This document shows, piece by piece, positions 42,970-55,659 of a DNA stretch of 64,000 nt. Source of the stretch: Candidatus Multivorans sp. Lineage in GTDB: Bacteria; Acidobacteriota; Thermoanaerobaculia; Multivoradales; Multivoraceae. Made by a program: the position numbers and the translations under genes. Position 1 is the stretch's first letter. Each line of letters starts with the position of its first letter. The DNA is taken from assembly GCA_965203495.1 (NCBI GenBank), contig CBDBDB010000016.1, forward strand, positions 72,719-136,718, in the 5' to 3' direction. The notes under the pieces were generated by a model. The model did no database searches and had not been told where the DNA came from. It was given only the letters and a program-made list of their open reading frames with translations.

Positions 42970-43166
42970 CAGTCCGCGGGAGCATAGCCGCCGGATACGA
43001 TTGGCCGCCGACAGGACGGGTGCGGCTTGCTCGCCTTCTTGCTGCTCGCCGTCTCGTGGCGGGACGGAGCGCGGCCGATCTGGTCGGCCGATCTCGAGAC
43101 GCGGAACACGCTGCTCTGTCTCCTGCCGGTGCGGCGCCCCTGACGGACGCGCGTCCGGAAGACCGA

Positions 43167-43862
<696 letters not shown>

Positions 43863-43946
43863 CGGGCGGGCACGTTAGCACCGGACGCCGCCCGGGACGC
43901 TCCTGATACGGTCGGCGCTCGCAGCAGCGACAGGGGACTCGGAACG

Positions 43947-44843
43947 ATGATGACGGAATCGGCGCACAACCTCGGCCGGCTCGGCGTCTGGGCCGGCCTC
44001 GACGACCTCTCCGCGGCCCGGGCGGCCGACTTCGCGGCCCGCATCGAGGCCCAGGGCTACGGCGCGCTGTGGACGCCGGAGGCCATCGGCCGCGATCCGT
44101 TCGCCCTGATCGCCTGGCTCGGCGCCCGCACCGATCGCATCACCCACGCCACCGGCATCGCGAACATCTACGCCCGCGACGCGATGACGACGAAGGCGGT
44201 GCACAAGACGCTGTCCGAGATGCTGCCGGGCCGCTTCGTCCTCGGCCTCGGCGTCTCTCACCCGCACCTGGTCGCCAACCTGCGCGGGCACGAGTACCAG
44301 CCGCCGGTGCGGAAGATGCGCGAGTACCTGGAGGCCGTCGGCAAGGCGTTCTATCGAGGCCCCGAACCCGAGCGGGAGGCGCCGATCGTGATCGCCGCGC
44401 TGCGGCCGCTGATGCTGAAGCTCGCCGCGACGGCTGCCTCCGGCGCCCATCCCTACCTGGTGACGCCGGAGCACACCCGGAAGGCGCGCGAGATCATGGG
44501 CGAAGGCCCCCTTCTCTGCCCCGAGCAGAAGGTGATCCTGACCACGGACGCCGAGGCGGCCCGCGGGATCGGCCGCGCCAACCTTCAGGTCTACCTGCGG
44601 GCGCCGAACTACCAGAACAGCCTGCTCGAGCTGGGCTACGCCGAGGACGACTGGCGGGAGTTCCAAGCCAGCGACCGCCTGGTCGACGCCCTGATCGCGT
44701 GGGGAACGGAAGACCGGATCCGCGAACGCATCCAGGCCCACTGGGACGCCGGCGCCGATCACGTGTGCATCCAGGCGTTTCGTCCCGACGGCAAGCCGGG
44801 CGCCGACCTCGACGCCCTGGAGACGCTCGCCCCCGGCCGCTGA
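43947..44843 (+). CDS. luciferase-like monooxygenase (LLM) family oxidoreductase, probably F420- or flavin-dependent
   Basis: 298 aa with LLM-family collinearity (LGVWAG...RIEAQGYGALWTPE...GLGVSHPHLV...). ATG pair at 43947/43950 (MMTESAH...). Confidence 0.78.
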   Translation: MMTESAHNLGRLGVWAGLDDLSAARAADFAARIEAQGYGALWTPEAIGRDPFALIAWLGARTDRITHATGIANIYARDAMTTKAVHKTLSEMLPGRFVLGLGVSHPHLVANLRGHEYQPPVRKMREYLEAVGKAFYRGPEPEREAPIVIAALRPLMLKLAATAASGAHPYLVTPEHTRKAREIMGEGPLLCPEQKVILTTDAEAARGIGRANLQVYLRAPNYQNSLLELGYAEDDWREFQASDRLVDALIAWGTEDRIRERIQAHWDAGADHVCIQAFRPDGKPGADLDALETLAPGR

Positions 44844-44873
44844 CGCTCTCGACCAAACGAGGAGAAGGACCCC

Positions 44874-46064
44874 ATGAAGAACCGTCACTCCACGACCGCC
44901 ATCGCAACCGCGGTGCTTCTCGCGCTGACCGCACTCGCCTGCGGGCCGGCCGAGGAAGCGCCCGAACCGATCGACCTCGAGGCGCCCCTCGCCGATCTCG
45001 TCGAAGGGTGGAACACGATCGCCCCGGGCGGGAGCACGACCTGCTCCGACGGTTCGCCGTTCCGGTTCTTCGTCCGCAAGGCCGATCCGACCCGACTCGT
45101 CTTTTATCTCCAGGGCGGCGGCGGCTGCTGGAACGCCGAGACCTGCGACCCGCGGGGCCGACCGACCTACACCACGACCGCCATCGAGGAGCTGCGTTCG
45201 CCGAGCGGCACGGAGCCCGAGGAAGGCGCCGTCCACGGCATCGCGGCATTCAACCACCCGGAGAACCCGTTCGCCGACCACAGCTTCGTCTTCGTGCCCT
45301 ACTGCACCGGCGACGTTCACATCGGCGACCGCGACATGGTCTACGACGTGCCGGCGACGGAGGAGGAGCCGGCGCGCCAGGTGACGATCCACCACCGCGG
45401 CTACACCAACGGTCGGGCGGCTCTCGACTGGACGCACGAGCGCTTCAAGGGTCCCGAGACGGTCTTCGTCACCGGTTCGAGCGCCGGCTCGATTCCCGCG
45501 CCGGTCTATGCCCGCCACTTCGCGGAGCGCTATCCGGCCGCCCGCGTCACCGCCCTGGGCGACGGCGCCGGCGGCTACCGCAACCTGACCGACAGCCGGC
45601 CTCACGAGTCCTGGGGGACGCTGACCGCCCTCTCCGGCTTCGAGGACATGAACGGGATCGACAGCGACGACTTCTCGTTCGAGACCCTGTACATCCAGGC
45701 TGCCAAGGCCCACCCCGAGGTCGTGTTCACGCGGTACGACACCGCCGAGGACGACGTACAGCTCCAGTTCCTGCGGCTCGCCGGCGCGAACGTCGACGAC
45801 GGTCTGCAGCCGCTGCTGGACGCGAACGAGGCCGACATCGATGCCGCGCTCGAGGGGCAGGACAACTACCGGAGCTACGTCGCCCCGGGCGAGTTGCACA
45901 CGATCATGCTGCGGCCCGAGTTCTACACGGTCGAATCGGACGGCGTCGCGATCCGCGACTGGGTCGCGGCGCTCGCCGCCGGCGAGCCGGTCGACGACGT
46001 CCACTGCGGCGATTGCGCGGTTTCGCCGGAACCGGAAACCGCCGGCGAAGCGACCGGACCGTAG
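44874..46064 (+). CDS. pectin acetylesterase (PAE/Notum-like) family hydrolase, lipoprotein
   Basis: Lipobox LTALAC-G. LVFYLQGGGGCWNAETC matches the PAE-family oxyanion/GGGxC motif. 396 aa. Confidence 0.7.
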   Translation: MKNRHSTTAIATAVLLALTALACGPAEEAPEPIDLEAPLADLVEGWNTIAPGGSTTCSDGSPFRFFVRKADPTRLVFYLQGGGGCWNAETCDPRGRPTYTTTAIEELRSPSGTEPEEGAVHGIAAFNHPENPFADHSFVFVPYCTGDVHIGDRDMVYDVPATEEEPARQVTIHHRGYTNGRAALDWTHERFKGPETVFVTGSSAGSIPAPVYARHFAERYPAARVTALGDGAGGYRNLTDSRPHESWGTLTALSGFEDMNGIDSDDFSFETLYIQAAKAHPEVVFTRYDTAEDDVQLQFLRLAGANVDDGLQPLLDANEADIDAALEGQDNYRSYVAPGELHTIMLRPEFYTVESDGVAIRDWVAALAAGEPVDDVHCGDCAVSPEPETAGEATGP

Positions 46065-46143
46065 CGCGTCGCGGACCGGATGCCGGCGGGGACGCCGGCG
46101 CACCCAGTCCGGATGCCGGCGGGGGCGCCGGAGCACCCCGGGT

Positions 46144-47277
46144 CTACTCGGGGAAGAGACTCCGGTCGAGACCCGGGATGATCTTCAGCGCGTTGCGGAA
46201 GTAGATCTTCTCGAGCGCCTCTTCCGACAGGCCGAGGCCGTACATCTTCCAGTGGGCGTGGCGCTTCCGGTAGTAGTCGAAGTACTCGTCCCGCGTCTCC
46301 AGGACGCGGAAGTAGACGTGGTAGCCGTCGATCGGATCCCAGGAGTCCTTGCCCATCAGGACGCGGTCCTGGTACGTCTCCAGAAAGGCGGCGGCGGTGA
46401 TCGGCTGCCGGCCGAGTTCGGCGAGCACCGCGCCGAGTTCCGTATAGACGTTCGGCAGTTCGTCGAGCAGCTTGCCGAGCCGCTCCAGGTCGTTGCCGAA
46501 CCAGCCCAGGTGGGCGTTGATGAAGGTCGTGTTCGGGTGATTGCGGAACAGGTTGTGCTGCTCGGACATCGTCTGCTCGAACGAGGCGAAGCGCGCGGGG
46601 TCGTCGCGGCGACGGTTCGGAAACTGCTTGAGTTCGAGCCAGCGCTCGTTCCGCTCGTCCCACGGGTCCCAGAACGGCGACGGTTCACCGACGTGGATCA
46701 GGACCGGGATGCCAAGCGCTCCCGCCTTCTCCCACACCGGAGCGATCCGCGGGTCGTCCGCCGCCACCCTCTCGCCGTCGCTGTCGGTCTGGAACATGCT
46801 GAGGTTCTTGTAGATCTTCAGGCCCTGCGCGCCGGCCTCGACGTCCGCTTCAAGCTGCGCCGCCGCCTTCTCGCCCCAGCCGGGCTGACCGATGCCCGCG
46901 AAGTCGACGTTCGCGTAGACGGCGAACCGGCCGGGGTAGCGGCCCCTGGTCGCCGCAATGTTCGCCTTGAGGCGGTCGCCCGAACCGCCGCTCAGGTTGA
47001 CGAAGACAGCCATGTTCATCCTGTCCATCTCCTGGACCATTTCGTCGATCCGGGCCGGGTCGCCGCCGCGCAGGTGACCGTGAGCGTCGACGAAGGGGAA
47101 CTTCGCACGCGTCACCGGTCCGCCCGGCACGTTGAGCGTCGAACGCGGCTCCCAGGCCTCCACGGTCATCTCCTGGGCGGCGGCCGGAAGAGGCGGCGCG
47201 AGCAGCAGGGCGGCCAGCAGAAACCGCCGCGGATCGCCGATGCAGGTCGAGGCGTTCGAGCGATGGCAAACCGGCAT
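46144..47277 (-). CDS. amidohydrolase-2 family (PF04909-like TIM-barrel metal-dependent hydrolase), secreted
   Basis: Signal peptide, then FPFVDAHGHL metal-binding start. ATG at 47277 with a GGGGGAAAGAGA SD. 377 aa. Confidence 0.75.
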   Translation of the reverse strand: MPVCHRSNASTCIGDPRRFLLAALLLAPPLPAAAQEMTVEAWEPRSTLNVPGGPVTRAKFPFVDAHGHLRGGDPARIDEMVQEMDRMNMAVFVNLSGGSGDRLKANIAATRGRYPGRFAVYANVDFAGIGQPGWGEKAAAQLEADVEAGAQGLKIYKNLSMFQTDSDGERVAADDPRIAPVWEKAGALGIPVLIHVGEPSPFWDPWDERNERWLELKQFPNRRRDDPARFASFEQTMSEQHNLFRNHPNTTFINAHLGWFGNDLERLGKLLDELPNVYTELGAVLAELGRQPITAAAFLETYQDRVLMGKDSWDPIDGYHVYFRVLETRDEYFDYYRKRHAHWKMYGLGLSEEALEKIYFRNALKIIPGLDRSLFPE

Positions 47278-47390
47278 GGTCTCTTTCCCCCGGGCTTCCT
47301 GGTTCTGGTCCAAGCGGTCGGAGTCTACGGCAGGCTCCTCCCGGAGTTCTCGCGGACGGCAGGCGCCGTGCCCGCGTATACTCGCGGGCG

Positions 47391-47669
47391 ATGTCCATCG
47401 TGCGCGCCGCCGAAGTCGTGGTGTTGCTGTTCAGCGTGTACATCGCCTGCGGGCTGGCCTTCGCCCCCTTCTTTGTCTGGCGCGGGATCGGCCGCATCGA
47501 TCCCGCCGCACGATCGGCCGGTCTCGGCTTCCGGCTCATCATCCTCCCCGGCGTGGCCGCACTCTGGCCCGTCCTCCTGCCGAGGTGGCTTGCCGGCCGA
47601 CACTCCCCCTCGGAGCGCAACGCTCATCGCGACGCGGCCGCCGGTCGACCGAGGCAGGCCTCCGAGTGA
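47391..47669 (+). CDS. small 2-TM membrane protein (first gene of a translationally coupled operon)
   Basis: 92 aa. MSIVRAAEVVVLLFSVYIACGLAFAPFFVW... hydrophobic. Stop overlaps the next start (GTGA). TATACT hexamer 8 nt upstream of the ATG. Confidence 0.5.
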   Translation: MSIVRAAEVVVLLFSVYIACGLAFAPFFVWRGIGRIDPAARSAGLGFRLIILPGVAALWPVLLPRWLAGRHSPSERNAHRDAAAGRPRQASE

Positions 47670-47869
47670 TCCGCGGCCTGCGGCGGCGCCACCGCCTGGT
47701 CTGGACGGCGCTGTTCCCCGTCCTCGCGGTCCTGCTCGCCGCCGCCGTCCTCCTTCGTCCCGAGCCGCCGATCGTGGACGCCCTTCCCGAGCCGCGCGAC
47801 GCGGCGGCGGACGCGGTCGAGACCCGCGGCCGGGACGACACCGAACCATCGCGGAACGAGGATCCGTGA
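47666..47869 (+). CDS. small single-TM protein
   Basis: 67 aa. GTG start overlapping the previous stop. LVWTALFPVLAVLLAAAVLL TM helix. Stop overlaps the next GTG start. Confidence 0.4.
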   Translation: MIRGLRRRHRLVWTALFPVLAVLLAAAVLLRPEPPIVDALPEPRDAAADAVETRGRDDTEPSRNEDP

Positions 47870-48936
47870 GCGCCGAGTACCAGGCGGTCCTCTGGAACCG
47901 CAACAAGAAGCTCTACGACCTGACGATCGCGGCCGGCATCGTCCTGTTCCTCGGTCTCTTCGTCGGCGTCGGCGTCGCGACGCGTCCGCGGGCGACGATC
48001 GAAACCCTCCTGATCCGCGGCTTCGGCGCCGGCGCCCTGCTGCTGCTGCACGTCGTGCTCGCCATCGGACCGCTCTGCCGCCTCGAACCGCGGTTCCTGC
48101 CCCTGCTCTACAACCGCCGTCACCTCGGCGTCTGCGTGTTCCTGCTGGCTCTCGCCCACGGCGGGTTCTCGATCGTCCAGTTCCACGGCTTCGGCGTCCT
48201 GAAACCGCTCGTCAGCGTGCTGGCCAGCAACGGGAACTACGACAGCCTGACCCAGTTCCCGTTCCAGGCGCTCGGGCTTTCGGCGCTCGCGATCCTGTTC
48301 CTGCTGGCGGCGACCTCGCACGACTTCTGGCTCGCCAACCTCACCGCGCCGGTCTGGAAGTCGCTCCACATGCTGGTCTACGTCGCCTACGGACTGATCC
48401 TCGCGCACGTCGCGCTGGGCAGCCTGCAGACCCAGGAGCGACCGCCGGCGCTCGCCGCTCTGCTGGGGATCGGACTCGTCGGCGTCGCTTCGCTGCACCT
48501 CGCGGCCGGTTGGCGCGAACGCGGCCGGGCGCCGTTCGCCGCGGCGAACGGCGCCGCGGTCGACGTCTGCGCCGTCTCCGCCATTCCTCTCGACCGGGCG
48601 CGAATCGTCCTCCTCGGCGGCGAGCGGGTGGCGGTGTTTCGCTATCGCGCGGACGACGGCGAACGGATCGCGGCTGTCTCCAACGTCTGCCAGCATCAGA
48701 ACGGCCCGCTGGGAGAGGGCCGGGTCATCGACGGCTGCATCACCTGCCCGTGGCATGGCTACCAGTACCGTCCCGAGGACGGCTGCTCGCCGGCGCCGTT
48801 CACCGAGAAGGTCCCGACCTTCAACGTGCGGGTAAAGGATGGCCGGGTGCTGGTCGATCCGAGGCCGAACGCGCCTGGAACGCGTGCCGAGCCGGCGCGG
48901 CTCGACGCCGCGGCCCGCGACGAGGACGCTTCGTGA
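47866..48936 (+). CDS. fusion of a ferric-reductase-like (MsrQ/YedZ-type heme b) transmembrane domain and a C-terminal Rieske [2Fe-2S] domain
   Basis: N-terminal 6-TM region with conserved intramembrane His (LLLLHVVLAIG..., LALAHGGFS..., SLHMLVYVAYGLILAHVAL). C-terminal CQHQNGPLGEG...CITCPWHGYQY Rieske CXH...CXXH boxes. GTG at 47866 overlaps the upstream stop. Confidence 0.75.
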   Translation: MSAEYQAVLWNRNKKLYDLTIAAGIVLFLGLFVGVGVATRPRATIETLLIRGFGAGALLLLHVVLAIGPLCRLEPRFLPLLYNRRHLGVCVFLLALAHGGFSIVQFHGFGVLKPLVSVLASNGNYDSLTQFPFQALGLSALAILFLLAATSHDFWLANLTAPVWKSLHMLVYVAYGLILAHVALGSLQTQERPPALAALLGIGLVGVASLHLAAGWRERGRAPFAAANGAAVDVCAVSAIPLDRARIVLLGGERVAVFRYRADDGERIAAVSNVCQHQNGPLGEGRVIDGCITCPWHGYQYRPEDGCSPAPFTEKVPTFNVRVKDGRVLVDPRPNAPGTRAEPARLDAAARDEDAS

Positions 48937-49775
48937 TCGGCGCCCGCCGCGACGAGTTCCACGTCGGCCACGTCGACGAGACGCCGCCGGACGTTGCTCG
49001 GTTCGCTCGTCGCATCGCCATCGGCTTCCTGCTGCTGGCCGCCGTTCTCGGGGCCGTCGCGGCGCTGCTGCTGGAGCGCTTCGACGAAGGCGTGTTCGAG
49101 TACGGCGTCGTGGGGGACCACGCAGGCGAACTGCTCCTCGACCCCCATCCCCGCCTGATCGCGGCGGACGGACCGGCCGCGGGCTATCTGCTGGTCGGGA
49201 CGGGAAAACACGGGCTGGACGTGAGCGGCGAATCCAGCCCGCCCTGGACGCCCTCGTCGTCCAGGAAGGCCGAGATCTCGGCCACGCTGATCCGGAACCC
49301 GGAGGCGGCCATGCTCGAAGTGCATTCCCTCGAGTTTCCCGAGGGGCCCGAAGGCAAGGCCGACGCCGAACCCGCCGCCGAGCCGGGCGTCCCCGCCGAC
49401 CGCGGACAGACCCTGCTGGGGGAGATCGTCGACACGAAGTGCTACCTGAGCGCCATGAAGCCGGGCCGCGGCAAACCCCACCGGGACTGCGCCTCGCTCT
49501 GCATCCGCGGAGGCGTTCCGGCCGCGTTGCTGGTGCGGACGGAGAACGGCGAACGACGCCTGGTCCATCTGCTGGACCCGCGGGGCCAGGCGTTGGGGCA
49601 CGAGGTTCTCGACTGGGTGGGCGAACCGGTCGAGGCGCGGGGAACCCTGAGGCGGCGTGACGGCCGCTTCTTCCTGCGGACGTTCGGCATCCGGCCGACA
49701 CGCGCCCCCGCGGCGGCCCCCTTCGTCCTGCCGTCCAGCCGGACGCACCCGTCCCCGACCGCAAGCAGCCGATGA
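48933..49775 (+). CDS. hypothetical single-TM membrane-anchored protein
   Basis: 280 aa. GTG overlapping the Rieske stop (GTGA). TM helix IAIGFLLLAAVLGAVAALLL then soluble domain (…KCYLSAMKPGRGKPHRDCASLCIRGG…). Stop overlaps the olsB ATG (ATGA). Confidence 0.5.
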   Translation: MIGARRDEFHVGHVDETPPDVARFARRIAIGFLLLAAVLGAVAALLLERFDEGVFEYGVVGDHAGELLLDPHPRLIAADGPAAGYLLVGTGKHGLDVSGESSPPWTPSSSRKAEISATLIRNPEAAMLEVHSLEFPEGPEGKADAEPAAEPGVPADRGQTLLGEIVDTKCYLSAMKPGRGKPHRDCASLCIRGGVPAALLVRTENGERRLVHLLDPRGQALGHEVLDWVGEPVEARGTLRRRDGRFFLRTFGIRPTRAPAAAPFVLPSSRTHPSPTASSR

Positions 49776-50635
49776 CCGAGCCAGTCCGCGACAACGCCCC
49801 GGCGACCGGCCTCGGCGGCGGACCCATGCCCGGCCCCGAACACCTGCCCGACGGACAGATCGAAGCCGGCGCCTACCGACTGCGCTTCGCGCGCACGGCC
49901 GAGGACATCGACCGGCTGCTGGCCCTGCGCTTCGAGGTCTTCAACCTGGAACTGGGAGAAGGTCTCGACGAGTCCTGGGACACCGGCCGTGACACGGACG
50001 GTTTCGACGCAAGTTGCCACCACATGCTGGTCGAGCGGACGGACGGCACGATGATCGGCACCTACCGGATGCAGACGGCCGCCATGGCGGCCCGCGGCAA
50101 GGGCTTCTACTCGGCCACCGAGTACGACCTGGACGCCCTGCCCCGCGGCGTGCTCGACCGTTCGGTCGAGATCGGCCGCGCCTGCATCGAACGCCGCCAC
50201 CGGAAGCGGACGGTCCTGTTCCTGCTCTGGCGGGGCCTGGCCCGCTACATGGTCCACAATCGGCTCCGCTACCTGTTCGGTTGCTGCTCCCTGACCAGCC
50301 AGGACCAGGCCGCGGGCATCCGGCTCTACCGGCAGCTCGTCGCGGGCGGCAAGGTCAGGCCGGACCTCGACGTGCCGGTACTCGAGCACGCCCGCTGCGA
50401 GGCGCCGACCGAGATCGTCGAGAGCGGGCCGCGGACCGAGATGCCGCCCCTGTTCGCAACCTACCTGCGCTACGGCGCCCTCGTCTGCAGCCGGCCGGCG
50501 ATCGACCGCGACTTCAGAACGATCGACTACCTGGTGCTGATGGACACGGACACGCTCAGCCGGCGCATGCGGCTGATCTTCGGACTCGACCCGACGCCGG
50601 CAACCGAATCGGCGACGCGCGACGCCAGCGCCTGA
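49772..50635 (+). CDS. olsB: OlsB-like GNAT-fold N-acyltransferase (ornithine/amino-acid lipid N-acyltransferase family)
   Basis: 287 aa. YRLRFARTAEDIDRLLALRFEVFNLELGEG and downstream ...GTYRMQT...EIGRACIERRHRKR... follow the OlsB/GlsB (hemolysin-like acyltransferase) pattern. Followed by a PlsC-type acyltransferase. Confidence 0.78.
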   Translation: MTEPVRDNAPATGLGGGPMPGPEHLPDGQIEAGAYRLRFARTAEDIDRLLALRFEVFNLELGEGLDESWDTGRDTDGFDASCHHMLVERTDGTMIGTYRMQTAAMAARGKGFYSATEYDLDALPRGVLDRSVEIGRACIERRHRKRTVLFLLWRGLARYMVHNRLRYLFGCCSLTSQDQAAGIRLYRQLVAGGKVRPDLDVPVLEHARCEAPTEIVESGPRTEMPPLFATYLRYGALVCSRPAIDRDFRTIDYLVLMDTDTLSRRMRLIFGLDPTPATESATRDASA

Positions 50636-50639
50636 GGGA

Positions 50640-51455
50640 ATGCGCTTCCCTCGCGTCTGTCGGCTGGCCTGGCGGGGCCCGGCGCTCCTCCTGGCCACCC
50701 TGGCCGCATGGCTGCCGCTGCTGGTCCTGAAGCCGCTCCTCGCGCGCCGCCGCTACCCTACCTGGCGCAGGGTCCGCTCCGGCATCATGCGCCGCTGGGG
50801 CCAGGCGTGCCTGGCCGCGCTCGGCTGCCGGGTCACGGTCCGGGGAGCGCCGCCCCGGCCGCCCAGCCTGCTGGTCTCGAACCACGTCTCCTACGTCGAC
50901 ATCCTGGTGCTTGCCGCGCACTCGCCCGCCCGTTTCGTCTCCAAGTCCGAGGTCGGGGGGTGGCCCCTGGCCGGCTGGGTGTGCCGCACGGTCGACATCC
51001 TCTTCGTCGACCGCGGCCGGCGGCGCGACGTGACCCGGGTCGGCGATCAGATCGCCGAGGCCCTAGAGGCGGGCGATCCGGTCATCCTCTTCGCTGAAGG
51101 CACGTCGACGCCCGGCGATGCGGTGGCCACGCTCAAGCCCTCGTTGCTGGCGCCGGCCGCCGTCCAGGAACTCCCGGTGCACTGGGCGGTCCTGCGCTAC
51201 GAGACGCCGGACGACGAGGATCCCGCCTTCCTGAGCGTCGCCTGGTGGGGCGACATGCCGCTGACGCCGCACGCGCCCGAACTGCTCACGCTGCGCCGGA
51301 TCGACGCCGAGCTCGAGTTCGGGGCGGAGCCGCTTCATGACGCCGACCGCAAGGAACTCGCGCGTCGACTGCGACGACGCATGACGGCGGCGTTCCGGCC
51401 CATGGTTTCGAGCGAGGAAGCGGCCGCTTCGACCGGCGACCGGCGGTTTCCATGA
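50640..51455 (+). CDS. olsA: lyso-aminolipid O-acyltransferase, PlsC (1-acyl-sn-glycerol-3-phosphate acyltransferase) family, OlsA-like
   Basis: HX4D acyltransferase motif (SNHVSYVDILVL) and the FAEGTS block. N-terminal TM anchor. Immediately downstream of olsB. Confidence 0.75.
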   Translation: MRFPRVCRLAWRGPALLLATLAAWLPLLVLKPLLARRRYPTWRRVRSGIMRRWGQACLAALGCRVTVRGAPPRPPSLLVSNHVSYVDILVLAAHSPARFVSKSEVGGWPLAGWVCRTVDILFVDRGRRRDVTRVGDQIAEALEAGDPVILFAEGTSTPGDAVATLKPSLLAPAAVQELPVHWAVLRYETPDDEDPAFLSVAWWGDMPLTPHAPELLTLRRIDAELEFGAEPLHDADRKELARRLRRRMTAAFRPMVSSEEAAASTGDRRFP

Positions 51456-54076
51456 CGGTTTCCGGGAGGCGCCGGCACTGGCCTCGGGTCGCCCTCGGCG
51501 TCTACTGCGCGCTGCTGCTTGCTTCGACGGTCGTCCGGCTGGCCAGGGACGAACGCCAGCCGCCGCCGGAAGATCGCAGGACGATGGAGATCCCCACGCC
51601 GGACGGCGAAGGGACGTTGCTCATCGCCTGGAAGGAAACGTCTTCCCCGAACGAGGAGGCGCTGCCGCTCGTGCTGCTGCACGGATCGCCCGGCAGCGCC
51701 GGGAACTTCGACGGCCTGACGTCGCGGTCGACCCGGCGGCGGACCATCGCGCCGGACCTTCCCGGCTTCGGCGCCTCCGATCGCCGAGTGGCCGACTACT
51801 CCGCCCGCGGCCACGCGAGTTCCACGCTGAGGCTGCTCGATCGCCTGAACGTCGAGCGGTTTCACGTTCTCGGTTTCAGCATGGGCGGCGCGGTTGCGCT
51901 GCATCTCGCCGAACAGGCGCCCCGCCGGGTCGCCTCGGTCGTCCTGACGTCGGCGATCGGCGTTCAGGAGCTCGAGCTCCTGGGCGACTACCGGATGAAC
52001 CACGGGCTTCACCGTCTCCAGCTCGGCCTGTTGCGGGCGATCCGCCTTCTGGTCCCCCACTTCGGCGTGTTCGACAGCGCCGCCGCCTGGTCCTACGCCC
52101 GCAACTTCCACGACACGGACCAGCGGCCGCTGCGCGGCATCCTCGAGTCCCTCGACGCGCCGGTCTTCATTGTCCACGGCACGCGGGATCCCCTCGCGCC
52201 GGCCGCCGCGGCGCTGGAGCACCACCGCATCGTGCCGCAAAGCGAGTTGTGGATGCGTCCTGACAGCCACTTCTTCCTGTTCCGAGGCGGCGAAGAGCTT
52301 GCCGCCCGGATCGAGGACTTCCTGAGCCGCGTCGAGGCAGGCGAGGCAGCGACTCGCGCCGATGCCGAACCGGACCGGCTGCGCCGCGCCGCCCTGCCGT
52401 TCGACGACCGGAACCTCCCGCCGTTCGCCGGGCCCGCCCTGCTGATCGTCTTCCTGCTCCTCGTCTTCGCCGCGTACGTCAGCGAGGATCTGGCCGGCGT
52501 TGCCGCCGGCCTGCTCGCGGCCCAGGGCCGGCTCGACTTCACCGTTGCCGTCGCCGCCTGCTACGTCGGCAACCTGAGCAGCGACCTCGTCATTGCCTGG
52601 CTGGCGCGCGTTCTCGGCCGGCCGGCTCTCGGACTGCCGCCCTTCAAGTGGTGGGTCAGCGACGCTTCGATCGAAGAGGCTTCCGCCTGGCTGCGCCGGC
52701 GCGCCCTGGCGGTCGTGCTGGCCAGTCGGTTCCTGCCCGGAACGCGCCTGCCGATCTGTCTGGCCGCCGGCATCCTGCGCACGAGTCTGCCCCGGCTCTG
52801 CTTCTGTTTCGCGGTCGCCGGGGCAATCTGGACCCCGGCTTTCGTCGGCGTGAACGCCCTCCTGGGACGCGAAGCCGTCGCGCGCCTTGGCGGCCGGCTG
52901 CCGGGAGGGATCTTCGGCGCCGCGCTGGTCCTGGCGCTCGTCATCTTCACCGTGCGGAGCGTGGTCCTGCCTCTGCTCACGTGGCGGGGCCGCCGCCTCT
53001 GGCGCGGCCGCCTGCTGCGCATCCGGCGATGGGAGTTCTGGCCGACGTGGGCGTTCTATCCGCCGCTCGCGCTCCACATTCTCTGGCAGGGCCTGTTGCG
53101 GGGCAACCTGACCGCGTTCACCGCCATCAACCCCTCCATGCCGCTAGGCGGTCTGGTCGGTGAGTCGAAGAGCCACATCCTCGACGGACTGGCCGGCATC
53201 GGCGAGGCGCTGCCGGCCTGGAGGCGGCTCGGGACCGGACGCCCGGAGGAACGCGTCGCGGCTCTGCGCCGCTTCCTGAAGGACGAGAACCTCGACTACC
53301 CCGTCGTGCTCAAGCCGGACACCGGCGAACGCGGCCGCGGCGTCGCCGTAGCGCGCACCGAAGCCGACGCGGTAGCGTTCTTCGAGAAGACCCCGGGACC
53401 GGCGCTGGCGCAGGAGTTCGTCGACGGCGAGGAGTACGGCGTGTTCTGGGCCCGGCGCCCGGGCCGACGCAGCGGGCACGTCTTCTCGATCACGCACAAG
53501 GTGCGGCCCACCGTGACCGGCGACGGAACCAGCACGTTGGAGCGGTTGATCCTGAACGACCCGCGCGCGGTCGCCATCGCCCACGTGTACCGGCGGGAGC
53601 ATCCCGAGGCGGCGACGCACATCCCCGAGGTCGGCGAGAAAGTCGAGCTGACCCAGGTCGGCGCCCACTCGCGGGGGACGATCTTCCTGGACGCCAACGA
53701 CCTGCACACGTCGGACCTGGAGCGGGCGATAAACGCGATCTGCACCGCCTGCGTCGGCTTCGACTTCGGCCGCTTCGACCTGCGCGTCCCGAGCGCCGAG
53801 GCGCTGCGGCGCGGCGAGGGCATCCGCGTGCTGGAAGTGAACGGAGTGACGTCGGAAGCCACCCACATGTACGACCCGCGCTACGGTTTCCTCGCCGCCC
53901 ACGCGATCCTGCGACGGCAGTGGCAGCTGGCGTTCGACCTGGCGGAGGAACGCATCCGCGAAGGTGTTCGACCCGCCACGTTGAGCCGGATTCTCCACGC
54001 CGCGCGGGTTGAACGACGAGCCCGCCGCGGCGCGGCGCAAGCGCCCGCCCGCCGGGCGCGGCGCCGAACACGGTGA
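51452..54076 (+). CDS. three-domain fusion: N-terminal alpha/beta hydrolase, central DedA/VTT-family membrane domain, C-terminal ATP-grasp ligase-like domain
   Basis: aa 60-300: LLHGSPGSAGNF...GFSMGGAVALHLA...HGTRDPLAP (alpha/beta hydrolase). aa 330-480: SEDLAGVAAG...RFLPGTRLPICLAAGI (DedA/VTT signature). aa 560-840: YPVVLKPDTGERGRGVAVARTEADAVAFFE...LAQEFVDGEEYGVFW...VLEVNGV (ATP-grasp-like). ATG overlaps the olsA stop (ATGA). Confidence 0.75.
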   Translation: MTVSGRRRHWPRVALGVYCALLLASTVVRLARDERQPPPEDRRTMEIPTPDGEGTLLIAWKETSSPNEEALPLVLLHGSPGSAGNFDGLTSRSTRRRTIAPDLPGFGASDRRVADYSARGHASSTLRLLDRLNVERFHVLGFSMGGAVALHLAEQAPRRVASVVLTSAIGVQELELLGDYRMNHGLHRLQLGLLRAIRLLVPHFGVFDSAAAWSYARNFHDTDQRPLRGILESLDAPVFIVHGTRDPLAPAAAALEHHRIVPQSELWMRPDSHFFLFRGGEELAARIEDFLSRVEAGEAATRADAEPDRLRRAALPFDDRNLPPFAGPALLIVFLLLVFAAYVSEDLAGVAAGLLAAQGRLDFTVAVAACYVGNLSSDLVIAWLARVLGRPALGLPPFKWWVSDASIEEASAWLRRRALAVVLASRFLPGTRLPICLAAGILRTSLPRLCFCFAVAGAIWTPAFVGVNALLGREAVARLGGRLPGGIFGAALVLALVIFTVRSVVLPLLTWRGRRLWRGRLLRIRRWEFWPTWAFYPPLALHILWQGLLRGNLTAFTAINPSMPLGGLVGESKSHILDGLAGIGEALPAWRRLGTGRPEERVAALRRFLKDENLDYPVVLKPDTGERGRGVAVARTEADAVAFFEKTPGPALAQEFVDGEEYGVFWARRPGRRSGHVFSITHKVRPTVTGDGTSTLERLILNDPRAVAIAHVYRREHPEAATHIPEVGEKVELTQVGAHSRGTIFLDANDLHTSDLERAINAICTACVGFDFGRFDLRVPSAEALRRGEGIRVLEVNGVTSEATHMYDPRYGFLAAHAILRRQWQLAFDLAEERIREGVRPATLSRILHAARVERRARRGAAQAPARRARRRTR

Positions 54077-54086
54077 GACGCGCGGA

Positions 54087-54557
54087 CTACCCGGCCTTCG
54101 CGGGCGCCTTCTTCTTCGCCGTCCGACGACGCGGCTTCGGCTTCTCCAGCGCATCGAGCCGCGCCTCGATCGCCCCCAGCCGTTCGATCACGGCCTCCAG
54201 GTCCGCCTTGCCAGGGACGCCGAGCTTCTCGAGCCGCCGCTCCAGGTGCTCGTCGATTCCCGTCCGCGCCTTGGCCCGCGTCTGTTCGACCCCCTTTTCG
54301 GCGGCGGCGCGCACCTGCTGAACCTTCTCCTCGGCCTTGTCCCGCCAGCCGCTCAGGGACTCCCGACTCTGGCTCTCGACCTTCTCGCCGCGCGCGACCA
54401 GCCGGTCGAAGACCCTGGCGCCCACATCCGCCGCCTCGCCCGCCGCCCCGACGCCGGCGAGCGCCGCCTTGTGAACCTTCTCGACGACGGACTCGACCGC
54501 CGTCCGCGGCTTCGAGCCGCTGTCCCTCCCGTCCGCCGCGGATGCTGCTGCCGTCAT
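54087..54557 (-). CDS. phasin / PHA-granule-associated protein with Lys/Ala-rich histone-like tail
   Basis: 156 aa, helical and low complexity, rich in A/E/K/R. C-terminal PKPRRRTAKKKAPAKAG. ATG at 54557 with AGGGGAGA SD. Resembles PhaF/phasin-family proteins. Confidence 0.65.
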   Translation of the reverse strand: MTAAASAADGRDSGSKPRTAVESVVEKVHKAALAGVGAAGEAADVGARVFDRLVARGEKVESQSRESLSGWRDKAEEKVQQVRAAAEKGVEQTRAKARTGIDEHLERRLEKLGVPGKADLEAVIERLGAIEARLDALEKPKPRRRTAKKKAPAKAG

Positions 54558-54750
54558 CTGTTCTCCCCTGTACGTTGCGTCTTCCAGTGGTCTGACCGCG
54601 ACCCGGTCAGCGCCCCGAAACTCGTCTCCCGCTCTGTGTTCCGGCCCATCCTGTCCGTCCCCGGTAGCTCGGGACAGGAACGCGGCGCCTTGACCGGAGT
54701 GCCAAGCCGGACCTTCCGATTGGCATTGAGCGCAGAGTAACATCGGCGCC

Positions 54751-55659
54751 ATGAGAATCCATACGAAAAAACCGAGATCGATGTTGGCCTTCGTCCTGCC
54801 GACGACACTGATCGCGCTCACCGCCTTCGGCGGCGTCCACGCGCAAGACGAAGCCGCGACGAAGTCCTTCACGGCCAGCGACGGCGTCGAGATCCACTAC
54901 CTGGTCGAAGGCCGCGGCGACCCGGTCGTGCTGCTTCACGGCATCACCGGCACGGCCGTCTCGAACTGGGGCGCGACGGGCATCATCGGCCAACTGGCCG
55001 AGGAGTTCCAGGTCATCGCCGTCGACCAACGCGGCCACGGCAAGAGCGGCAAGCCGCACGACCCGGCGAGCTACGGCGAGCGCATGGCGCTGGACGTCGT
55101 CGACCTGCTCGATCACCTGAAGCTGCGGCAGGCCCACGTCGTCGGGTACTCGATGGGCGGCTTCATCACGATGAAGCTCGTCGCGCTGGCCCCGGACCGG
55201 CTGATGTCGGCCGTGGTCGGCGGCGCCGGCTGGCCCAGCCGCGAACTCCGGGATGACGCGATGTTCGACGCGCTGGCCGCTTCCCTGGAGGAAGGCAATG
55301 GCGCCGGCCCCTTGATCGAAGCCCTCTGGTCCGGCGACGACCCGCCGGCGCCAGAGCAGGTTCAGGCGATCGGCCAGATGATGGTCGCCTCGAACGATCA
55401 AGCGGCCCTCGCCGCCGTCGTCCGCGGCATGCCCTCCCTCGATCTGGGCGCGGACGCTCTCCGGTCGAACAAGGTGCCGACCCTCAACATCATCGGCGGC
55501 GCCGACCCCCTGAAGCCGAGCGCCGAGGCCCTCGTCGGCCTGATGGAGGGGCACCGCCTCCACGTCATCGAAGGCGCGGACCACATGACCGCTCTCCGGT
55601 CCCCCGAGTTCACCGCCGCGATCCGCGACTTCCTCATCGAACTCTGCAACTGCGCCTGA
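54751..55659 (+). CDS. secreted alpha/beta hydrolase
   Basis: Signal peptide (MLAFVLPTTLIALTAFGGVHAQ), HGITGT...DQRGHGKS, GYSMGG nucleophile elbow, C-terminal GADH catalytic His region. Confidence 0.8.
   Translation: MRIHTKKPRSMLAFVLPTTLIALTAFGGVHAQDEAATKSFTASDGVEIHYLVEGRGDPVVLLHGITGTAVSNWGATGIIGQLAEEFQVIAVDQRGHGKSGKPHDPASYGERMALDVVDLLDHLKLRQAHVVGYSMGGFITMKLVALAPDRLMSAVVGGAGWPSRELRDDAMFDALAASLEEGNGAGPLIEALWSGDDPPAPEQVQAIGQMMVASNDQAALAAVVRGMPSLDLGADALRSNKVPTLNIIGGADPLKPSAEALVGLMEGHRLHVIEGADHMTALRSPEFTAAIRDFLIELCNCA

Follow-up and report, generated by a model that had tools for sequence, protein, structure and literature searches.

In E. coli Gss an ATP-grasp-type carboxylate-amine ligase and a hydrolase that undoes the ligation are joined in one chain, which gives homeostatic control; Gss is soluble and has no transporter, its hydrolase is a Cys amidase of the CHAP type, and both domains lie in one compartment. 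Translocation is part of the design in MprF together with AcvB, VirJ or PA0919: the head group of a lipid is modified at the inner leaflet and the product is translocated by the same polypeptide, as we propose below, and a periplasmic hydrolase from the same operon as MprF controls its level (PMC8131360, PMC11980842, PMC13197417). For ornithine lipids, synthesis of cerilipin in Gluconobacter cerinus involves an ATP-dependent transfer of taurine, which is the type of reaction to be expected of an ATP-grasp enzyme linked to olsB and olsA; this transfer, onto the carboxyl group of ornithine lipid, has been described biochemically and has no gene assigned to it (PMC12971839). OlsH and OlsI of Singulisphaera acidiphila, an ATP-dependent amide-forming enzyme and an alpha/beta-hydrolase-fold enzyme, likewise act on ornithine lipid (PMC12493201). 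Among DedA proteins, UptA has an N-out topology (PMC11474028), the conserved Arg pair is usually interpreted as binding phosphate, and the fusion partners in a published survey are only PAP2, rhodanese and pyridine-nucleotide oxidoreductase (PMC10127716).

The gene described here combines an alpha/beta hydrolase, a DedA/VTT domain and an ATP-grasp domain; it lies in a window of 64,000 nucleotides, which is the whole stretch of DNA analysed. We found no paper or curated family covering this three-domain protein and no literature pairing “ornithine lipid” with DedA, a 2026 review of aminolipids nowhere mentions ATP-grasp, flippase or transport, and none of the NCBIfam models reaches its own cut-off on the protein. 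An earlier note on this DNA had held that the architecture was not a described one; no description was found, and the partner list of the DedA-fusion survey differs (PMC10127716).

Table 1. Features of the three-domain gene and its upstream neighbours (positions in the window).
Feature	Position	Strand	Remarks
Ferric-reductase-type membrane domain fused to Rieske [2Fe-2S] domain	47850..48936, approximate	+	
Conserved gene, no family match	48510..49775	+	start probably ~48660, ~370 aa
OlsB-like amino-acid N-acyltransferase (Acetyltransf_5)	49772..50635	+	Pfam E 4e-28
OlsA-like lyso-aminolipid O-acyltransferase (PlsC family), directly upstream	50640..51455	+	Pfam Acyltransferase E 2e-18
Hydrolase-DedA-ATP-grasp gene	51452..54076	+	ATG start, 874 codons/aa, no internal stop
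N-terminal hydrophobic helix, residues 13-28, after Arg-rich tail	51488..51535	+	AlphaFold2 helix 5-31
Alpha/beta-hydrolase domain, residues 43-295	51578..52336	+	fold, triad and oxyanion motif present
Hydrolase nucleophile S143	51878-51880	+	elbow G141-F-S143-M-G145
Hydrolase triad Asp D246	52187-52189	+	
Hydrolase triad His H273	52268-52270	+	
DedA/VTT domain, residues ~327-508	52430..52975	+	PF09335 and UptA model
DedA re-entrant loop 1 tip E345/D346	52484-52489	+	
DedA re-entrant loop 2 R426	52727-52729	+	
DedA re-entrant loop 2 R432	52745-52747	+	
Arg-rich helix 509-526 and aromatic WEFWP...LW helix 527-549	52976..53098	+	AlphaFold2 helices
ATP-grasp carboxylate-amine ligase domain, residues ~550-840	53099..53971	+	profiles, AlphaFold2, Foldseek
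ATP-grasp K621	53312-53314	+	ATP-binding Lys
ATP-grasp E795 and N797	53834-53842	+	Mg2+-binding E-x-N

A Widespread Protein With Three Domains

The three-domain protein is a single intact polypeptide and not a frame-fusion artefact. Neither stops nor frameshifts were found at ~52.4 and ~53.0 kb, where the earlier note had seen a risk of fused frames. Among the matches listed, more than 100 database proteins of ~820-1,000 aa are collinear with it over at least 86% of the query (44-81% identity); relatives are encoded in at least 587 species-representative genomes. Given the open frame, the hundreds of independent collinear homologues, among them some from complete chromosomes and from one cultured strain, and a confident full-length AlphaFold2 model (mean pLDDT 90.2, pTM 0.75), the probability that an assembly or annotation error has joined three separate genes is negligible. 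Profiles, model and homologues together confirm the architecture proposed from the sequence, and a search for the same fusion elsewhere found it in hundreds of genomes; it is not rare, and to call it unusual was mistaken. It is a real, widespread and unstudied membrane protein, whose homologues are annotated in the databases only as “alpha/beta fold hydrolase.”

The invariant core of the family is the ATP-grasp module (1,655 clusters at 50% identity), which occurs in the three-domain form, in a DedA+ATP-grasp form and alone; in two gene clusters the DedA and ATP-grasp domains are encoded separately. Some 40% of the best family representatives do without the hydrolase, a dispensable part of the family. 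As the DedA domain is also missing or degenerate in some members, the three activities are not obligatorily coupled.

Hydrolase and DedA Domains

The hydrophobic helix at the N-terminus, preceded by a tail with a mean of 3.9 Lys and Arg residues over 75 homologues, is read as a signal anchor with a presumed N-in orientation. Judged by its residues, the hydrolase that follows is catalytically complete: Ser143, Asp246 and His273 are invariant in 75 sequences, and H77-G78 forms the oxyanion motif. The cap motif Y215-R228 (YARNFxDTDQRPLR) is specific to the family of this hydrolase. PlaF-type membrane-anchored phospholipase A (PDB 6i8w) shows only 24% identity, and has neither the fused domains nor the cap motif.

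Residues ~327-508 belong by sequence to the DedA/VTT family, and lipid flipping or scrambling is the activity predicted for them. PF09335 matches residues 353-467 with 41.5 bits (E 2e-10) against a gathering score of 33.9, and the NCBIfam UptA model NF052604 matches with E 4e-12. The candidate assignment as UptA itself was rejected, the 46.5 bits standing against a cut-off of 250: the domain is a relative and not an orthologue. The AlphaFold2 model has short helix pairs at 327-357 and 418-441 and three membrane-spanning helices. E345/D346, the acidic tip embedded in the membrane, and R426 and R432 are invariant among homologues, and the two arginines have the same R-x5-R spacing as R130/R136 of YqjA. 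D346 aligns with UptA E32 by the offset of the profile match, and we take it to be the equivalent of YqjA D51 (manual alignment); E39 of YqjA has no equivalent here. The closest DedA relatives are of the UndP-flippase type (COG0586/UptA), the Arg pair being retained, a point against the aminolipid function proposed below. Compared with UptA, YqjA and YghB, the COG0586 type, the present domain lacks the N-terminal membrane span, is fused to enzymes on both sides, a combination outside the surveyed fusions (PMC10127716), and has aminolipid genes rather than cell-wall genes as its genomic partners.

An ATP-Grasp Ligase, Probably at the Membrane Surface

Between the DedA domain and the ligase lie two helices, one Arg-rich and one aromatic. 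The best 19-residue insertion energy here is ~+7 kcal/mol, so that the segment is not a membrane span; we infer that the two helices anchor the ligase to the cytoplasmic surface of the membrane, and the same Arg-rich/WEFWP segment also starts stand-alone ATP-grasp homologues. No Pfam ATP-grasp model exceeds its gathering score on the protein (best ATP-grasp_3, 18.4 versus 23.2 bits), yet the fold is established by three comparisons: the NCBIfam cyanophycin synthetase model (residues 612-798, E 7e-9, 34 bits), the family profile against the PDB (E 3.8e-9 to CphA1), and Foldseek with the AlphaFold2 model (E 2e-11 to CphA1 and GshAB, and to 1e-7 across CphA1, GshAB, Ddl, VanA and LysX). The model of residues 510-874 has a pLDDT of 90.0 and a pTM of 0.86. 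A different fold for the C-terminal region, which had been considered as an objection, found no support, the profile and Foldseek matches being of the CphA1 type.

K621, Q654, E661, R774, D776, E795 and N797 are conserved in 99-100% of 376 family members (191 with three domains, 97 with two and 88 with one) and align to CphA1; the domain is catalytically complete by these residues, and N560, E571 and K573 form a loop on the substrate side. In sequence and structure, it comes closest to the G domain of cyanophycin synthetase, to GshAB, to CphA2/RimK-domain proteins and to Ddl/VanA. Features in common with the CphA1/CphA2 G-domain group are the Lys that binds ATP, the E-x-N that ligates Mg2+ and the insert P-x-V-x-GDG-x-x-T-L-x-x-L-I. 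Enzymes of these groups phosphorylate a carboxylate and then add an amine, and the closest relatives with solved structures all act on an amino-acid or peptide carboxylate (VanA adds a hydroxyl). The protein is not CphA1, a candidate rejected at 34 bits against a cut-off of 850 with only the G-domain region matched; the N and M (Mur-ligase) domains of CphA are absent, Pfam finding no Mur-ligase domain. Unlike its CphA counterparts, the ATP-grasp domain shares its chain with a membrane transporter, and its usual N-terminal subdomain is swapped for the membrane-surface helices and the family-specific loop.

Ddl, GshAB and the L-amino-acid ligase 3vot, all close relatives, use soluble substrates, and the ligase might accordingly make a soluble dipeptide or modified amino acid which OlsB then N-acylates, with DedA and hydrolase serving general lipid export and turnover. 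Ser-Gly and Orn-Ser-Gly are known as aminolipid head groups (PMC12971839), and the linkage to olsB and olsA described below would be explained equally well. We nevertheless consider this unlikely, since every ligase form, the stand-alone one included, carries the Arg-rich/aromatic membrane-surface helix, the canonical N-terminal substrate domain has given way to a conserved membrane-proximal loop, and the recurrent fusions with a lipid transporter point to a substrate in the membrane.

Membrane Topology

The N-termini of the two-domain forms bear on the orientation of the protein. Some have only ~10 residues ahead of an invariant S-E-D, too few to cross the membrane, and in others the S-E-D is preceded by a Sec or lipoprotein signal peptide (assigned by eye). 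These N-termini, the helix of the stand-alone ligases and the K+R counts, which agree with the orientation proposed, indicate that the hydrolase is probably periplasmic and the ATP-grasp domain probably cytoplasmic. The chain would run from an N-in anchor helix through a periplasmic hydrolase, a DedA domain (N-out, C-in) and an interfacial helix to a cytoplasmic ligase, and the orientation of the DedA domain would match that of UptA. We think it unlikely that DedA positions a single lipid for the two enzymes, as the comparison places these in opposite compartments; they would act in sequence on opposite leaflets.

A Conserved olsB-olsA Neighbourhood

The three-domain gene closes an olsB-olsA operon and is translationally coupled, its ATG overlapping the stop codon of the olsA-like gene (ATGA). 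Both neighbours are members of their families, Acetyltransf_5 and PlsC acyltransferase; equivalog status was rejected for each. NCBIfam OlsA models give 130-135 bits with a cut-off of 300, and OlsB models ~126 bits with cut-offs of 320-350, scores so far below the cut-offs that the matches do not fix the head-group amino acid. The gene whose stop overlaps the olsB-like ATG has no match in Pfam or NCBIfam; it is conserved in close loci and in eight distant ones, and possibly belongs to the operon.

In 69 of 80 genome loci, a homologue of olsB, of olsA or of both is found next to the gene; these loci come from at least four phyla (several classes of Acidobacteriota, Planctomycetota, Gemmatimonadota and others). 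In eight of the remaining 11, the upstream sequence available is shorter than 1.2 kb; L050, L065 and L079 have ample flanks, yet neither gene is nearby, and a Nevskia locus also has no olsB or olsA in the vicinity. Most of the DedA+ATP-grasp and stand-alone forms examined still adjoin olsB/olsA: the former sits in olsB-olsA-DinB-TANGO2 operons, one stand-alone ATP-grasp gene is immediately upstream of olsB-olsA, and both split-gene clusters adjoin olsB, one of them with olsA as well. The link to aminolipid genes drawn in the earlier note is hence stronger than was claimed, the synteny being kept across phyla and in fused and split forms.

This synteny also bears on a role in cell-wall synthesis, in which DedA would flip UndP, ligase and hydrolase would act on an UndP-linked or peptidoglycan intermediate, and olsB/olsA would be incidental. 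UptA is the best DedA match and the Arg pair is kept (PMC10127716), Ddl and VanA are among the ligase relatives, and murF adjoins the gene at one locus. The synteny with olsB/olsA, which is kept in at least four phyla and also where the genes are split, the absence of any recurrent cell-wall gene in neighbour clustering, and an UptA score far under the cut-off make such a role very improbable. At locus L083, the Mur ligase next door is an ordinary MurF.

OlsH is ATP-dependent and OlsI an alpha/beta hydrolase (PMC12493201), and the same pair of enzyme types here could make acyloxyacyl aminolipids de novo by a fourth route, with the ATP-grasp domain N-acylating an amino acid by means of free fatty acid and the hydrolase acting as O-acyltransferase. 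We think this distinctly improbable: OlsB and OlsA, which nearly always co-occur with the gene, already perform both steps, the hydrolase is absent in many members and probably periplasmic, apart from acyl-ACP and acyl-CoA, and the ATP-grasp relatives activate amino-acid or peptide carboxylates and not fatty acids. OlsH is moreover a GH3 adenylating enzyme, OlsI is likened to the present hydrolase only at the level of shared fold, and the pair replaces OlsB/OlsA, whereas the present protein accompanies them.

Proposed Function

With roughly even confidence, we propose that the protein is a conserved enzyme of the inner membrane and belongs to an aminolipid pathway of the ornithine-lipid type, in which the ligase would modify the lipid, DedA translocate it and the hydrolase trim it or reverse the modification. 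On the cytoplasmic leaflet, the ATP-grasp domain would phosphorylate a carboxylate and couple an amine to it. The likeliest carboxylate would be the one left free at the alpha position when OlsB/OlsA have made their N-acyl amino-acid lipid, which is chemically like a peptide C-terminus, and an amino acid or a compound like taurine would supply the amine; by analogy, the cerilipin taurine transfer is a functional lead only. The DedA domain would then shift the lipid between leaflets, and on the outer leaflet the periplasmic hydrolase would take off either the newly coupled group or an acyl chain, setting the steady-state level.

This would amount to an MprF/AcvB-like design for another class of lipid, put together from unrelated domains. 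Homology to MprF was rejected, neither its flippase nor its aminoacyl-PG synthase matching in Pfam or NCBIfam. MprF uses aminoacyl-tRNA and modifies phosphatidylglycerol, whereas the present ligase would use ATP via an acyl-phosphate on a target that is presumably a phosphorus-free aminolipid; the functions split between MprF and AcvB can be held in one chain in the present family.

The three activities could instead form a carrier cycle, the ATP-grasp domain loading an amino acid or peptide on the aminolipid or another lipid, DedA flipping it, and a periplasmic alpha/beta-fold transferase passing the cargo to an envelope acceptor before the empty lipid flips back. Neighbour clustering found no conserved acceptor or cargo gene nearby and the hydrolase is often absent, and we rate such a cycle as rather improbable.

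ATP-dependent ligation of taurine to ornithine lipid has been known since the 1970s and was never given a gene. It is possible, if still doubtful, that the family comprises the missing ATP-dependent head-group ligases for aminolipids and its DedA domain the first dedicated aminolipid translocase, amounting, where the hydrolase is present, to tRNA-independent MprF-like remodelling or a carrier cycle. If this is true, a remodelling system serving phosphorus-free lipids would be widespread, in Acidobacteriota, Gemmatimonadota and Planctomycetota as well as outside these phyla, and dipeptide-type or amidated aminolipids await discovery in abundant soil phyla.

The DinB-like, TANGO2/NRDE-like, DoxX-like, YHS and SDR genes that recur in these clusters fall outside the proposed model. 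In distant loci the ferric-reductase/Rieske gene is again found upstream of olsB, and it recurs in a split-gene cluster of Terriglobia.

Integrity and Domain Composition of the Fusion Protein

The fusion combines domains of three superfamilies (alpha/beta-hydrolase, DedA and ATP-grasp), as the earlier note had read from the sequence, and all three catalytic or transport domains are intact. The possibility raised there of a frame-fused artefact was not borne out: the reading frame is uninterrupted, and nearly all of the best 120 among 1,707 database matches to the fusion are 820–1,000 aa long and collinear with it (44–81% identity). Pfam recognizes the hydrolase (Abhydrolase_1, E 7e-27; Abhydrolase_6 over residues 73–285), in which the GFSMGG motif occupies residues 141–146, and the VTT/DedA domain over residues 353–467 (41.5 bits vs. 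a gathering score of 33.9). The C-terminal domain has a sub-threshold Pfam match to ATP-grasp only; nevertheless NCBIfam, PDB searches and Foldseek agree on its identity, so the fold assignment stands. Residues 612–798 match the NCBIfam cyanophycin-synthetase model (E 7e-9), a single-sequence search matched CphA1 in the PDB, and a 20-sequence profile of residues 510–874 found CphA1 (E 3.8e-9), CphA2 (1e-8), GshAB (5e-7), a RimK-domain protein (3e-6) and Ddl (4e-6). For an AlphaFold2 model of this ligase region (510–874; pLDDT 90.0, pTM 0.86), the best Foldseek matches were CphA1, GshAB, CphA2, Ddl, VanA and LysX (E 2e-11 to 1e-7). Alignments of 26 and 75 homologues showed invariant residues in the hydrolase (H77-G78, S143, D246, H273), in DedA (E345, D346, R386, R426, P429, G430, R432) and in the ATP-grasp domain (K621, Q654, E661, R774, D776, E795, N797).

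Distribution of the Family

The architecture is not rare, contrary to its earlier description as unusual: when each species was represented by a single genome, a scan found a relative in at least 587. The same scan placed the fusion in a Thermoanaerobaculia/‘Ca. Multivorans’ clade (70–82% identity) and found distant members (41–50% identity) in Blastocatellia, Vicinamibacteraceae, Holophagales, Gemmatimonadota and Planctomycetota. One of these distant carriers is a cultured strain, Saltatorellus ferox Poly30 (NZ_CP036434.1, locus L057). A look-up by exact protein sequence gave no recorded contig for the fusion. Current labels are limited to “alpha/beta fold hydrolase,” “DedA family protein” or “hypothetical,” and NCBIfam holds no curated model for the family. 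That the architecture had not been described was upheld: a survey of DedA fusions does not include the hydrolase-DedA-ATP-grasp combination (PMC10127716), literature searches for the architecture gave unrelated matches or none, and it is absent from the aminolipid literature that was searched.

The Ligase Is the Core of the Family

A profile of residues 510–874, searched against 1.84 billion representatives, defined a ligase family of 1,655 clusters at 50% identity (E ≤ 1e-30). Among the best 149 of these clusters, 73 combine hydrolase, DedA and ATP-grasp, 55 have DedA and ATP-grasp, 15 consist of ATP-grasp alone, always with the Arg-rich helix and the aromatic WEFWP helix at the N-terminus, and in six DedA is degenerate or undetected. 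Key ligase residues are conserved at 99–100% in all three architectures, which therefore represent a single family with a single chemistry. Its core is the ligase module; fusions and fissions link the different domains to one another, and the hydrolase is dispensable within the family. Some family members, such as P0124 (577 aa), combine an intact ligase with a degenerate DedA in which the S-E-D motif is replaced and re-entrant loop 2 lost; transport is therefore not a function that every member has kept. Separate hydrolase genes near split clusters (L087, L088) and the second hydrolase of the window were considered as orthologues of the fused hydrolase and rejected: their matches are those of alpha/beta hydrolases in general, and they lack the cap motif (Y215–R228).

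Conserved Coupling to olsB and olsA

The fusion closes a same-strand series of five genes (see the table), with ATGA overlaps at the junctions of the ~370-aa protein with olsB and of olsA with the fusion. The putative aminolipid acyltransferases OlsB and OlsA, which in the window score under the NCBIfam equivalog cut-offs, are encoded at 65 and 64 of 80 loci respectively, nearly always upstream and on the same strand; neither is found at 11 loci, eight of which have <1.2 kb of upstream sequence. The adjacency to aminolipid genes pointed out in the earlier note also extends to shorter and split forms. Two-domain proteins occur in olsB-olsA-DinB-(TANGO2)-[DedA-ATP-grasp] operons, one stand-alone ligase lies directly upstream of olsB-olsA, and in two clusters adjoining but unfused genes beside olsB encode DedA (203–206 aa), TANGO2 and the ligase; at one Nevskia locus of a shorter form, olsB/olsA were not found within 6 kb. 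The ligase is genetically coupled to the OlsB/OlsA acyltransferases, and the coupling is conserved.

Coordinates of features in the window and, where an L number is given, at fetched genome loci
Feature	Position	Strand	Description
Luciferase-like monooxygenase + pectin-acetylesterase-like (PAE) protein	43020–46064	+	
Composite ORF	45841–48936	+	1,031 aa
Ferric-reductase/Rieske protein	~47850–48936	+	ferric-reductase-type membrane domain fused to Rieske [2Fe-2S]
Conserved ~370-aa protein	frame of 48510–49775	+	conserved frame
OlsB-like N-acyltransferase	49772–50635	+	
OlsA-like O-acyltransferase	50640–51455	+	
Fusion	51452–54076	+	uninterrupted 874-codon ORF, ATG start
Phasin / PhaR entry	54087–54872; L026 13398–13970	− (both)	
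Second alpha/beta hydrolase	54751–55659	+	302 aa, apparent Sec signal peptide (…LTAFGGVHA|QDE)
DinB-like four-helix-bundle / TANGO2/NRDE region	L025 8707–9953; L057 8600–9951; L084 5380–6602; L089 4104–6011		

The ferric-reductase/Rieske gene and the ~370-aa gene, whose product has no family match in Pfam or NCBIfam, also precede olsB at seven distant loci (L048, L049, L052, L058, L060, L067, L080), and one of the split-gene clusters (Terriglobia) has both as well; possibly the two genes supply this system with a redox module. At ~70% G+C, long spurious ORFs arise around 45841–49660. The composite ORF is matched by homologues over residues ~102–598 and ~667–1014 as separate genes, and a candidate gene at 48839–49660 (273 aa, +) was discarded as lying in the wrong frame.

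Membrane Topology

Many two-domain proteins start only ~10 residues ahead of the invariant S-E-D motif at the tip of re-entrant loop 1 of DedA (e.g., MWLLALLTLLSEDL), and helix 327–343 is therefore the first arm of this loop and no span; others have a Sec signal peptide or lipobox, judged by eye, followed by 20–40 residues before the motif. A model with both enzymes in the cytoplasm, built on positive-inside counts with helix 327–343 as a full span, needs an exported Arg-rich N-tail, and was dropped because the N-termini of two-domain proteins make the helix before S-E-D either a half-helix or one preceded by a signal peptide. By the offset of the NCBIfam alignment D346 corresponds to UptA E32, and presumably also to YqjA D51, going by a manual alignment to YqjA. 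UptA itself has its N-terminus outside (PMC11474028). The aromatic helix 527–549 was rejected as a fifth span: its insertion energy is unfavorable (~+7 kcal/mol) and it opens the sequence of cytoplasmic ligases that stand alone, which places the Arg-rich (509–526) and aromatic helices on the cytoplasmic surface. Judged from sequence features, the fusion would consist of an N-in anchor (13–28), a periplasmic hydrolase (43–295), a loop 1 that dips in from the periplasmic side, spans at 363–388, 446–470 and 488–508, and a cytoplasmic ligase, an arrangement that satisfies the positive-inside counts.

A Candidate Aminolipid Head-Group Ligase and Flippase

All solved relatives of the ligase phosphorylate a carboxylate and add an amine, and the fusion would be expected to do the same, the obvious candidate substrate being an N-acyl amino-acid lipid, which would offer its free alpha-carboxylate at the membrane surface. 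The presumably periplasmic Ser hydrolase might trim or reverse the modification; Gss, a ligase/amidase fusion, is a precedent for a ligase with a reversing hydrolase. The DedA domain, which keeps its acidic residues and Arg pair, may shift the lipid between leaflets; in DedA proteins the acidic residues have been tied to proton coupling and the Arg pair to the binding of anionic groups (PMC10127716). Rival readings, each held less likely, are a soluble ligase that forms dipeptides, a carrier cycle, a de novo route like that of OlsH/OlsI, and a UndP-related function. The fusion falls outside the UptA, CphA and MprF families, because it stays under curated thresholds or lacks defining domains. 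Ornithine lipid offers a precedent for modification by the ligase: taurine is transferred to its carboxyl in an ATP-dependent reaction whose enzyme gene is unidentified (PMC12971839). MprF with the periplasmic hydrolase AcvB provides a precedent for a design of modification, translocation and hydrolysis (PMC8131360, PMC13197417); by analogy, the fusion would couple head-group modification to translocation using unrelated modules and for a different lipid class.

A tentative proposal, with a less than even but substantial chance of being right, is that this family represents the ligase and flippase system so far missing for aminolipid head groups. If the mechanism outlined above is right, it would assign a gene family to an ATP-dependent aminolipid head-group modification with an unidentified enzyme, and would supply the first candidate for inner-membrane translocation of ornithine-type lipids; the words flippase and transport are absent from a 2026 aminolipid review. 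The DedA superfamily would gain a substrate context beyond undecaprenyl phosphate, supported by natural gene fusions and fissions, which are strong functional links. Unknown lipid species would be predicted in three phyla that are dominant in many soils and sediments: Acidobacteriota, Gemmatimonadota and Planctomycetota. The three-gene cassette (49772–54076) is small enough for direct heterologous testing.

Accessory and Other Neighbors

At loci beyond the window’s clade, olsA and the fusion are separated by a DinB-like gene (37 loci) and a TANGO2/NRDE-like gene (22 loci), neither of which occurs in the window or in its close relatives. The Met-Cys start and NRDE motif of the TANGO2/NRDE-family protein suggest that it is possibly an N-terminal-nucleophile amidase. 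Unbiased clustering of neighboring ORFs revealed no further widely conserved partner, only scattered SDR, DoxX-like and PhaR genes. Other neighbors that recur beside the ligase, in L088, L089, L090, L091, L074 and the Terriglobia cluster, are small proteins with a YHS domain, a ~156-aa protein that has no family, a membrane protein resembling DoxX_2 and a short-chain dehydrogenase. A supposed CphA-like Mur-ligase partner downstream in L083 proved to be a bona fide MurF (325.8 bits vs. a cut-off of 288.6). In the window and some close relatives (6/80 loci), the gene downstream of the fusion is a convergent phasin gene, and a PhaR-type PHB regulator lies downstream at nine distant loci, which may reflect a loose tie to storage-lipid genes or coincidence. 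The second alpha/beta hydrolase is kept downstream only in the window’s clade, and the luciferase-like monooxygenase and PAE protein upstream only in close relatives.
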